From assembly GCF_003334785.1 (NCBI RefSeq), contig NZ_QOWV01000022.1: a DNA stretch of 54,561 nucleotides. One strand, 5' to 3'. How positions within the stretch are numbered: the stretch's first letter is position 1; every line of letters begins with the position of its first letter. Source of the DNA: Escherichia coli (GTDB lineage: Bacteria; Pseudomonadota; Gammaproteobacteria; Enterobacterales; Enterobacteriaceae). The notes beneath the pieces are model-generated. The model searched no databases. It had not been told where the DNA came from and was given only the letters and a program-made list of their open reading frames with translations. A program made the translations under genes and the position numbers. Below are positions 18,744 through 54,561 of this stretch, in pieces.

Positions 18744-18830
18744 GCCCGGATGGTGGAATCGGTAGACACAAGGGATTTAAAATCCCTCGGCGTTCGCGCT
18801 GTGTGGGTTCAAGTCCCACTCCGGGTACCA
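18744..18830 (+). tRNA. leuZ: tRNA-Leu (UAA), long variable arm
   Basis: GCCCGGATGGTGGAATCGGTAGACACAAGGGATTTAAAATCCC...GGGTTCAAGTCCCACTCCGGGTACCA; the T-stem differs from the K-12 sequence as I recall it by two compensatory changes. Confidence 0.85.
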
Positions 18831-18871
18831 TGGGAAACATCAGAATAATCAAAGCAATAAGCAGTGTCGTG

Positions 18872-18896
18872 AAACCACCTCCGGGTGGTTTTTTTG
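18872..18896 (+). terminator. Rho-independent terminator of the tRNA operon
   Basis: AAACCACC-tccg-GGTGGTTT followed by TTTTT. Confidence 0.7.
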
Positions 18897-19072
18897 TGCC
18901 TGAAATTCATGTCCTGTGCATATCCTGTGCGCACGGGGTGCGATGAGCTGCAATCTTCAGCCTGGCAATGCCGAATCGAACGTGTCGCTTCCAGCATAGA
19001 GAACCAGGCCGCTTTGCCTGTTTTCCGGTACGCTTCCGGGAAGGGGGGGCCCGCTGAGCAAGCTGTAATGCT

Positions 19073-19813
19073 CTAGCCACCCTGAGTACAAAGTTGCTTA
19101 ATTCGTGCAATCACCTCATCTCTGTACTTCTGGTGTCCGCGCATAGCCCGTGGATGGGCAATTCTGAAACAGATTGCATTACCTGTTTTGAACTCCCATA
19201 GCTTCCCCGGAATGACTGAAGAAGTCTCATAACCGCCTAGCTCAGTAAGCACCTGTTTTATGATGTAGTCTGTTCTCCGGGCTCCAGATGCAAAGATGAT
19301 GAAATCAGGCTCAAGGTGTTTAATTTGTACCGCCAGTAGCTTCAGCGAGGCTAATATAACTTCCTGCACTTCATTTTGAGGGCGATTGAGAGGGGTCAGT
19401 CCGTCGTAATCCCACGCCAGTAGATTGGCATACACGATAGCCTGGGGAGGAATATTAAGCTCCCGGGCCAGTCTGAAATGATATTGCGTGAAGCGGCTAC
19501 GTGATTTGAGGTTGGCGGTGCCATAATTTTGTACCGGAAGATGTTTCCTGTAACGATCTACAGCTTCTTCAACCACTTGCCCGATGGTGACGTCAGGTAT
19601 AAGTCCCAACACCCGTGATATCGTATTCTTACCATTCAGCGTATTCCAGCCTGCGGTTTCACGTCCAACCAGCATGATTTTTACCGGTGAATGCCAGTAT
19701 TCTTCAAAGGGTACGGGTAAAAATACGCCTGAGTATTTATCCTCATTCAGGTTAAATGACTGGGCGTTAACTTCCTGCAATATCCGTTTGTACGCGTCTA
19801 ATAGCTTTTCCAT
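19073..19813 (-). CDS. Uracil-DNA-glycosylase-like superfamily protein (pipolin-type UDG candidate)
   Basis: 246 aa; KIMLVGRETAGW resembles the UDG family-4 motif A (GE.PG) and IAHPRAM a C-terminal HP motif; lies between tRNA-Leu and the integrase. Fold assignment is my inference. Confidence 0.45.
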   Translation of the reverse strand: MEKLLDAYKRILQEVNAQSFNLNEDKYSGVFLPVPFEEYWHSPVKIMLVGRETAGWNTLNGKNTISRVLGLIPDVTIGQVVEEAVDRYRKHLPVQNYGTANLKSRSRFTQYHFRLARELNIPPQAIVYANLLAWDYDGLTPLNRPQNEVQEVILASLKLLAVQIKHLEPDFIIFASGARRTDYIIKQVLTELGGYETSSVIPGKLWEFKTGNAICFRIAHPRAMRGHQKYRDEVIARIKQLCTQGG

Positions 19814-53181: not shown

Positions 53182-53500
53182 AGTGGCGTCTGACTCAATT
53201 GATTCTCTTATGCCCAATTTGGGGCTTAAGGAGCAACTTAAGTATTTTGCCACACATGTCATTGAGGTTGAGCTTCCTAATGTTGATGCTGATTGTCGTT
53301 TGTTGCGGCCCGCAATGCTTGAGGCTTTGCTGGAACATCAGCCTTTATCACGTTCCGAGTTTGTTGAACGAATACCTCATTATCTGCGGCAAGCAACAGA
53401 TGTATACGAAGCACAACGCTTTCTTGACCGAGTCTTGGCATTAATTGATGGCGCAGAGGCTGAAGCGAATGATGCAGCGTTTGAGTCTGAATTGGCATAA
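53153..53500 (+). CDS. Short ORF overlapping the helicase stop in the +1 frame (possible split C-terminal domain or separate small gene)
   Basis: ATG at 53153; roughly 115 codons; helical acidic C-terminus (..RFLDRVLALIDGAEAEAN..). Confidence 0.3.
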   Translation: MSKRLRSSAEVASDSIDSLMPNLGLKEQLKYFATHVIEVELPNVDADCRLLRPAMLEALLEHQPLSRSEFVERIPHYLRQATDVYEAQRFLDRVLALIDGAEAEANDAAFESELA

Positions 53501-53522
53501 TTAGTTAAAGGTAATAAGAACA

Positions 53523-53692
53523 GTGACAACTGTCGGACAACGTGAACGCGCAACTCAACAGCGCGTAGTCAGGTTTTTTATTGAGGAATTGGGCTATCGT
53601 TATCTAGGCGATTGGCACAAGCGTCCTAACAACCGTAATGTTGAGCCTGATTTGCTCAGTCATTGGTTGATTGACCGTGGTGTTGTGGACTG
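53523..53692 (+). pseudogene. N-terminal stub resembling a restriction-enzyme helicase subunit (hsdR-like), cut off by the IS3-family element
   Basis: GTG-start translation VTTVGQRERATQQRVVRFFIEELGYRYLGDWHKRPNNRNVEPDLLSHWLIDRG resembles the N-terminal region of HsdR here (..LTSLGWTFLSPKQ..RGYKQDEVVLRPVL..); it stops with TGA at the IS boundary. Confidence 0.35.
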
Positions 53693-54561
53693 ACCCCACG
53701 CCCGTAGACAAATTCTGTCCTCACGACGAGGCCTGTTCGAAGGCCTCCGGACTGACGCCGCCGAGGTGACTGTGGCGCCGGGCCCGGTTGTAGAACACTT
53801 CAATGTAATCGAAGATATCCGCCCGGGCTAGATCCCGGGTTTTGTATATTCTCTTCCTGATGCGCTCTTTTTTCAGTGAACTGAAGAACGATTCGGCCAC
53901 CGCATTATCCCAGCAGTTGCCACGCCGGCTCATGCTCGGGACCAGGTTATTAGCCCGGCAGAAGCGCTGCCAGTCGTCACTGCCGTACTGGCTTCCCTGG
54001 TCTGAGTGCACGATGACCTCGCCGTCGGGTTTACGTCGCCAGACCGCCATCATCAGTGCATCCAGCGCCAGTTCGCGTGAGAGAGTGGGCTTCATCGACC
54101 AGCCCACCACGTTACGGGCGAAGAGATCGATAACCACCGCCAGATACAGCCAGCCCTGCCAGGTGCGGATATAAGTAATGTCGGTGACCCAGACCTGATT
54201 GGCCCGGACAACAGTAAACTGCCGCTGCACGCGATTAGGGGCAACCACTGAAGGTCTGCCAGCGATACGACGCGGCGCTTTATAGCCGCGCACGGCTTTA
54301 ATCCGGTTCAGTTGCATAATACGGCCCACCCGGTTTTTACCGCAGGTTTCCCCGATTTCGTTCAGGTCGCCATGAACCCGCCGGTAACCGTATACGCCTC
54401 CGCTCAGTGAATAGGAGTCACGGATAAGCGTCAGCAGACGCTGATTATCTTTATCACGTGCCGAGACCGGGGTAAGCGACTCGTCAGAACCGTATTGATA
54501 TTTACTGAGAGCTCAGATCAACTTTCCAGGGCAACAGATCGCGTACCCGGTTTGCCGGCCA
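53693..54561 (-). mobile_element. IS3-family insertion sequence (partial; continues beyond the window end)
   Basis: Terminal TGACCCC... end at about 53693 and an integrase-core ORF on the minus strand; orfA would lie beyond 54330. Confidence 0.7.
53721..54329 (-). CDS. IS3-family transposase OrfB (integrase core, DDE)
   Basis: 202 aa from the first ATG; WVTDITYI, HSDQGSQY and NCWDNAVAESFFSSLK motifs; the frame is probably entered by frameshifting from an upstream orfA. Confidence 0.8.
   Translation of the reverse strand: MGRIMQLNRIKAVRGYKAPRRIAGRPSVVAPNRVQRQFTVVRANQVWVTDITYIRTWQGWLYLAVVIDLFARNVVGWSMKPTLSRELALDALMMAVWRRKPDGEVIVHSDQGSQYGSDDWQRFCRANNLVPSMSRRGNCWDNAVAESFFSSLKKERIRKRIYKTRDLARADIFDYIEVFYNRARRHSHLGGVSPEAFEQASS

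Follow-up and report, generated by a model that had tools for sequence, protein, structure and literature searches.

What kind of DNA fills the space behind the tRNA-Leu gene leuZ in the Escherichia coli contig NZ_QOWV01000022.1 (assembly GCF_003334785.1), and does its load of defence genes hold anything new? We addressed this question in a stretch of 54,561 nucleotides (nt), hereafter called the window, in which an earlier note, made from the sequence alone, had read the DNA from leuZ onwards as a pipolin with stacked defence cargo. The region is very probably a pipolin of the common enterobacterial type, about 36–37 kb long and integrated in the E. coli chromosome. It consists of a conserved tRNA-proximal core and a distal cargo module, whose anti-phage genes are separated by insertion sequence (IS) debris. 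The element is of an already described kind, cargo included, as the pipolin, its core genes and its cargo set have all been published; the novelty implied by the earlier note thus does not hold for the element type.

The window is E. coli chromosome. The open reading frames (ORFs) upstream of leuZ have lengths identical to the annotated tcyL, tcyN, uvrY, uvrC and pgsA of related genomes, and ARAGORN finds glyW (tRNA-Gly), cysT (tRNA-Cys) and leuZ (tRNA-Leu(UAA)) at 18529–18830. The integration target leuZ lies at 18744–18830 on the plus strand, exactly where the earlier note had placed it. Upstream of it the GC content per kb stays at 0.44–0.53, and downstream it ranges over 0.348–0.562, in keeping with the mosaic composition noticed before.

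The DNA behind leuZ is inserted rather than ancestral. In K-12, leuZ and yecA are only 128 nt apart and share a single att copy, whereas in strains SHP24 and 99COLEC they are separated by about 35–37 kb, and it is this difference that identifies the island as an insertion. Both of these relatives match the window at about 97.7% over 18744–43500, and 99COLEC is 99.7% identical to it over 43400–54561. Among 5426 complete E. coli genomes, the polymerase gene of the element is carried by 296, always in the chromosome and in a single copy, and at least 80% of window 18744–43500 is present in 188.

Direct att repeats flank the element, and one of them overlaps the tRNA-Leu gene. The tRNA-proximal copy is about 131 nt long (18775–18907, no strand assigned), begins at 18775 with ATTTAAAATCCC, ends about 18907 and comprises the 3′ part of leuZ (its last 56 nt), the whole 3′ETS-leuZ and the terminator. 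The SHP24 island is bracketed by this repeat of about 131 nt, in which a 2-nt indel leaves two parts of 74 and 59 nt. The comparison with island-free K-12 and with the relatives thus defines both att copies, one in the window and its partner about 120 nt upstream of yecA in 99COLEC and SHP24, whose islands are 97–99% identical.

A search for a second att copy inside the window found none, because the window stops within an IS3-family element of about 1.26 kb that begins near 53686. 99COLEC has this IS3 at the same junction, with the second att copy and then yecA behind it, so the element should continue for about another 1 kb outside the window, to a total of roughly 36–37 kb. The earlier note had let the island run to the window end; the DNA is indeed foreign throughout, but the true end lies beyond it.

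The att repeat also bears on the tRNA operon. The 3′ETS-leuZ is a known small-RNA sponge for RyhB. Its whole sequence (18831–18895) lies inside the repeat, and once the element has integrated, the tRNA operon is transcribed with the copy from the element side. This copy departs from that of K-12 by G>C, A>C and loop U>C changes and a 2-nt deletion, five places in all, and its RyhB-complementary stretch AGCAGUGUCGUG is unchanged. In the T-stem of leuZ itself, a compensatory C>T and G>A pair is seen at 18804 and 18818 against both K-12 and the 99COLEC island, which fits a crossover upstream of the T-arm that would leave the 3′ half of the tRNA element-derived. An Rfam scan of the island returned three tRNAs and nothing else.

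The polymerase defines the class of the element. Its ORF spans 26057–28720 on the minus strand, and translation from the second in-frame methionine (Met22; 26057–28657) gives an intact protein of 866 amino acids (aa), which is the length annotated in RefSeq relatives. The piPolB enzymes, primer-independent family-B DNA polymerases, are defined by a PolC motif SxTTDG, in which Thr replaces the first Asp, and by KH-X8-KTRG, which takes the place of KxY (PMC5695915). Here the PolC motif reads SVTTDG at ORF residues 592–597, and the second motif is present as KHEVSQLIAMKTRG.

Counted from Met22, all seven residues that were mutated in the characterised enzyme of E. coli 3-373-03_S1_C2 are kept with identical numbering. 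These are D59 and E61, catalytic residues that form the exonuclease/polymerase set with D368, and K613, H614, K623 and R625, which occupy their published positions. A sequence search of the PDB with the protein returned no relative. By its motifs, the polymerase is a genuine piPolB and not a conventional protein-primed PolB, and its capacity for primer-independent synthesis is inferred from the motifs and residue positions it shares with the characterised enzyme. The earlier note had named two findings that would refute it, a polymerase of the conventional protein-primed kind and a region that is ancestral; both were looked into, and neither holds.

The other genes of the core agree with this assignment in content and in order. 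From leuZ there follow a gene for a uracil-DNA glycosylase (UDG) fold, the tRNA-proximal integrase, a zinc-ribbon-like ORF, orphans of 123 and 177 aa, a DUF2787 gene, a DUF726/LCAT-like hydrolase gene and a WYL regulator gene. Next come a 108-aa orphan, piPolB, a 212-aa orphan, an HTH_17 gene, the second recombinase and orphans of 376 and 410 aa. The gammaproteobacterial pipolin core, as laid out in PMC11551731, runs from IntSXT through DUF2787, WYL, orphans and piPolB to IntP2 and then the excisionase. That core, with an IntSXT-type integrase and two orphans at its head, is complete here in the published order.

The tRNA-proximal tyrosine integrase (19864–21111, plus strand) matches both Arm-DNA-bind_3 and Phage_integrase of Pfam, and the att repeat beside it overlaps the 3′ end of leuZ. 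It was called a P4-type integrase before. The domains bear this out, since IntSXT-family and P4-like integrases share one Arm-domain architecture, but the class given to it in PMC11551731 is IntSXT, and with the P4-like NCBIfam model PRK09692 it reaches just 26 bits, where the cut-off is 434. The XerC-like second tyrosine recombinase, IntP2 of the published core, is present at 29675–30811 on the minus strand. So is the excisionase-like HTH_17 (AlpA-type) gene for 66 aa (29332–29532, minus), followed on the same strand by the 212-aa ORF (28704–29342) and the polymerase gene.

Two more genes are markers of the pipolin core. The DUF2787 gene lies at 22475–22909 on the plus strand, and the HTH_DeoR-WYL-WCX transcriptional regulator gene at 24400–25302 on the minus strand. 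Together with the cargo, the core gene set matches that of the published enterobacterial pipolins.

Enterobacterial pipolins at tRNA-Leu were described by Redrejo-Rodriguez et al. in 2017 (PMC5695915), by Flament-Simon et al. in 2020 (PMC7385651) and by Mateo-Caceres and Redrejo-Rodriguez in 2024 (PMC11551731). The tRNA-Leu site, att repeats, XerC-like and phage-type recombinases, excisionase and UDG were all reported (PMC7385651). According to PMC11551731, their core lies conserved near the integration site and their distal module varies, with type I restriction-modification (R-M), PDC-S12, mza, hhe and HEC-06 as exchangeable defence cargo. The window element and the published ones are alike in target gene, att repeats, piPolB motifs and numbering, core order and a cargo of type I R-M, PDC-S12, hhe and, in the window, a HEC-06-like pair. 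They differ only at the strain level, in the hsdS allele, a cold-shock-domain cassette, the hhe frameshift, the distal IS3 and a nonsense codon within the 410-aa gene.

The two modules differ in how far they have diverged. Compared with a pipolin of Edwardsiella tarda, piPolB, IntP2, the 376-aa orphan and the WYL regulator are 66–69% identical, whereas in the cargo HsdR is 98.4% and PDC-S12 88% identical. The contrast between core and HsdR reproduces the published two-module picture.

The cargo had been counted as at least five defence modules, and this count was too high. By the PADLOC and NCBIfam profiles, the working defence content is three recognised modules, to which are added one damaged module, the frameshifted Hhe, and one stub of 54 hsdR codons. 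All these genes lie on the plus strand.

The first intact module is a type I R-M system with HsdM (34131–35654), HsdS (35644–36837; 397 aa) and HsdR (39397–42681) encoded together. All three subunits exceed the curated thresholds of their profiles, with TIGR00497 at 284.7 bits (cut-off 242.75) and TIGR00348 at 462.5 bits (cut-off 284.55), and the PADLOC Specificity_I profile matches HsdS at E 1e-104.

Inside this operon lies PDC-S12 (36837–37520), a protein with YecA-like UPF0149 and SEC-C domains. It matches PDLC04917 of PADLOC over its full length at 323.5 bits (profile positions 3–218 of 218), and its start codon overlaps the stop codon of hsdS, so that the two genes are translationally coupled. 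We considered it as a recent capture of the chromosomal yecA. It is 57% identical over the full length to the YecA of 99COLEC, which rules out such a capture and makes the two old paralogues. Since the far border of the island in the relatives is the chromosomal yecA, carriers have two YecA-type SEC-C proteins.

The third module is a HEC-06-like pair, in which the first protein joins GmrSD_N (DUF262) to DUF7834 (44088–45542) and the second joins GmrSD_N to GmrSD_C (DUF262/DUF1524; 45535–47577). The HEC-06 profiles match the pair at E 1e-30 to 1e-33, with the best stretches covering just the first 110 or so profile positions, that is, the DUF262 part, and other DUF262 families (Orf5, SspE) score nearly as high.

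The damaged module is hhe (47752–53500), which encodes a DUF4011 helicase-nuclease anti-phage protein and scores 2623.5 bits with NF042953 of NCBIfam against a cut-off of 2000. An extra G near 53170, relative to 99COLEC, puts the last 105 or so codons into another frame, and PADLOC profile positions 1–1803 and 1798–1911 accordingly match in two different frames. The next 165 nt (53523–53687) are the start of a further type I hsdR, of which 54 codons remain before the IS3-family element (53686–54561, minus strand) that interrupts it and runs off the window end. The junction of stub and IS3 occurs also in 99COLEC, so the insertion predates the split of these strains.

The remaining cargo genes are a YgjP-like M48 metallopeptidase gene that overlaps the end of hsdR (42678–43433, plus) and remnants of an IS1 transposase and an IS3-type integrase core (43520–44066, plus), which mark the junction of two cargo blocks.

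The core of this copy looks functional in sequence, with piPolB, both recombinases and Xis intact. By analogy with the published family, one tyrosine recombinase and the excisionase-like protein would excise and integrate the element through recombination between the att copies, and the self-priming piPolB may replicate or repair the excised circle. Carrying no transfer genes, the element would depend on other, helper elements for its movement. The cargo would protect the host and be swapped with plasmids and conjugative elements.

Other readings of the locus have to be set against the pipolin. One is a generic tRNA island or prophage remnant, in which a protein-primed phage or plasmid merely supplied the polymerase as a passenger. 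It could appeal to the weak Pfam match of the polymerase (DNA_pol_B_2, E 0.0097) and to the literature, in which prophages occupy the leuZ site more often, but the motif test refutes the passenger, since every piPolB-specific motif is present. Moreover, ten unassigned proteins yielded no structural or lysis match in PHROGs, where the named matches were two weak DNA-polymerase families, and the polymerase occurs together with the published core genes and diverges along with them. This reading keeps practically no probability. Somewhat less negligible, and still very improbable, is a composite of two elements, with an outer Arm-integrase island at leuZ and an inner, self-moving element of piPolB, IntP2 and Xis between two 26-nt repeats. 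These direct repeats (23100–23125 and 33887–33912) are identical at 24 of 26 positions with patchy similarity over about 90 nt, and both are intergenic. The pair exceeds chance (by our own estimate, about 4e-4 such pairs are expected in 36 kb), is conserved in SHP24 and brackets exactly the block from the DUF726 gene to the 410-aa gene, which has its own recombinase and excisionase along with piPolB. However, a synthetic deletion-junction query found the block missing in only one of the 5426 genomes, strain I4, which retains both repeats and has its breakpoints elsewhere (about 23240 and 33750), cutting into the 410-aa gene as an ordinary deletion would. A nested element bounded by these repeats was rejected on this sole junction match, and both integrases belong to one ancestral core in the analysis presented in PMC11551731. 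The repeat may instead be a putative binding site for a regulator.

A more serious competitor, possible though doubtful, is that the element is a fixed, decaying and immobile remnant that persists as a chromosomal defence island. The frameshift in hhe, the nonsense codon in the 410-aa gene, the IS1 and IS3 debris with the IS3 insertion and the lack of transfer genes speak for it. So does the further decay in relatives, where piPolB is frameshifted (99COLEC) or its block deleted (strain I4). By contrast, the window preserves piPolB, both recombinases, Xis and the att copy intact, and recent movement of the pipolin family is favoured by the near-identical Edwardsiella cargo and by the phylogenetic incongruence that has been published. 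Both lesions, the extra G within 53165–53175 of hhe and the CAA>TAA change at 32849 of the 410-aa gene, are likely inactivating, and they may be real decay or sequencing errors. The pipolin reading has further points to answer. The element has its true end and its second att copy beyond the window, so that completeness is inferred from the relatives that are 97–99% identical; two disrupted genes and three IS fragments leave room for a copy that may be decaying; and PDC-S12 and HEC-06 are candidates of the PADLOC catalogue for which we found no report of an experimental test.

Strain I4 is a natural piPolB-less derivative in its own right. The equivalent of window 23240–33750, approximately, is deleted in it, with DUF2787 joined to hsdM (I4 locus, 9610–10304). 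The hydrolase, WYL regulator, piPolB, Xis, second integrase and both orphans of low-GC DNA are thereby removed.

Within the pipolin, the gene that holds most promise of something undescribed lies in the R-M operon. A cassette at 37521–39414 replaces a 70-nt spacer of otherwise homologous operons and encodes a 594-aa protein (37543–39327, plus strand). Outside the strain family of the window itself, the gene is present in two of the six pipolin operons inspected and absent from four. Its protein family comprises 82 clusters from Gamma- and Alphaproteobacteria, and no family of PADLOC, NCBIfam or PHROG covers it. The structure model (pLDDT 86) resolves a cold-shock domain (12–81), a helical domain (87–376) and a beta-rich domain (387–560), which has about 15 invariant cysteines and is of a multi-zinc type. 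Structural relatives were found for the cold-shock domain alone among the three, and no effector domain is recognisable in the protein.

All five neighbourhoods of the 594-aa protein and its relatives that were examined, that of the window and four outside, are on mobile DNA, and three hold restriction or defence genes. In Vibrio, a relative lies beside a Fic gene with tra genes on both sides, a conjugative-element locus that we read as an SXT/R391-type variable region. Another occupies an integrase islet in Pseudomonas. In Vibrio lentus the gene stands between an Mrr-type nuclease and a giant NERD-kinase-helicase protein, and in Tritonibacter it directly follows brxL of BREX.

This association tentatively suggests that the 594-aa protein is an undescribed single-gene factor against phages or plasmids, or else an accessory to the type I R-M complex, a proposal that we hold to be possible and less probable than its negation. 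Should the defence reading be true, the cold-shock domain, as modelled, would likely sense single-stranded RNA or DNA of phages.

A precedent for genes embedded in an R-M operon is the prr-type arrangement, in which the gene for the PrrC anticodon nuclease is set within a type Ic R-M operon. The window operon resembles it in having extra genes between hsdS and hsdR, here those for PDC-S12 and the cold-shock-domain protein, and in addition the M48 peptidase gene after hsdR. The embedded proteins, however, have no sequence or fold relation to PrrC, and neither has a recognisable nuclease or ATPase domain.

The UDG-like gene next to leuZ (19073–19813, minus strand) was right as to fold and not as to family. 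Its 246-aa product has no match in Pfam, NCBIfam or PADLOC. The AlphaFold model, built with 30 homologues, has a pLDDT of 89, and its best Foldseek matches in the PDB are family-4 UDGs (4zby, 1ui0), UdgX, SMUG1 and TDG, with E values of about 1e-5, a probability of 1.0 and sequence identities of 12–15%. Family-4 UDGs and UdgX are the closest structural matches. The four Fe-S cysteines of family 4 are absent here, as C215 is the sole invariant cysteine across the 30 homologues, and a Pfam UDG match is lacking as well.

The motif A consensus of family-4 UDGs and UdgX is GE(A/G)PG. The 246-aa protein has GRETAGW (residues 50–56) at the motif-A-like place and AHPRA (219–223) at the expected place of motif B. 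The model thus supports a UDG-superfamily fold outside family 4, for a gene that has been called UDG in the earlier pipolin papers.

The core also contains several small proteins of little-known kind. A Cys-rich, zinc-ribbon-like ORF of 85 aa with CxxC...CxxC ends (21121–21378, plus) lies directly after the integrase gene; some related contigs have it as a called gene, and the two RefSeq relatives examined leave it unannotated. It is followed on the plus strand by the orphans of 123 aa (21472–21843) and 177 aa (21869–22402), which belong to PHROG 32947 and PHROG 28971, both of unknown function. The 108-aa orphan (25682–26008, plus) is conserved beside piPolB. Searches of Pfam, NCBIfam, PADLOC and PHROGs with the proteins of 246, 123, 177, 108, 212, 376 and 410 aa gave nothing informative, just PHROGs of unknown function.

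The WYL regulator has a neighbour that is swapped between elements. In the window, the two genes together span 23520–25302, with the DUF726/LCAT-like alpha/beta-hydrolase of 272 aa at 23520–24338 on the minus strand, whereas in the Edwardsiella tarda pipolin, at 18249–20197 of the locus compared, a small GTPase of the MMR_HSR1 type takes its place. Such a conserved regulator with an exchangeable partner resembles a pair of sensor and effector, as far as gene content can suggest.

At the cargo-proximal end of the core, in low-GC DNA, lies the 376-aa orphan (30955–32085, minus), and next to it the 410-aa gene (32592–33824, minus), which is a pseudogene here (Q326*) and whose family is confined to Enterobacterales. 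Both families are tiny, with 30 clusters among 1.84 billion representatives for the former and 13 clusters among 5.8 billion for the latter. Relatives of both adjoin the second integrase in the Edwardsiella tarda pipolin, and a relative that shares 37% identity with the 376-aa protein is encoded just upstream of an integrase that is 77% identical to the second recombinase. The 376-aa orphan diverges at the rate of core genes. A MAFFT pair alignment had suggested that it is related to the cold-shock-domain protein, and this is not real (BLASTP E = 0.5). The 376-aa and 410-aa genes behave as core genes, and neither is named in the accessible part of PMC11551731.

In summary, as a whole the element contains nothing new, and its value is that of a clean, well-delimited example of an E. 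coli pipolin with an intact core and a partly broken cargo. It also yields a short list of genes that the defence catalogues leave unclaimed. Among them the cold-shock-domain cassette is the best lead for something undescribed, and its gene has the strongest claim to a phage-challenge test.

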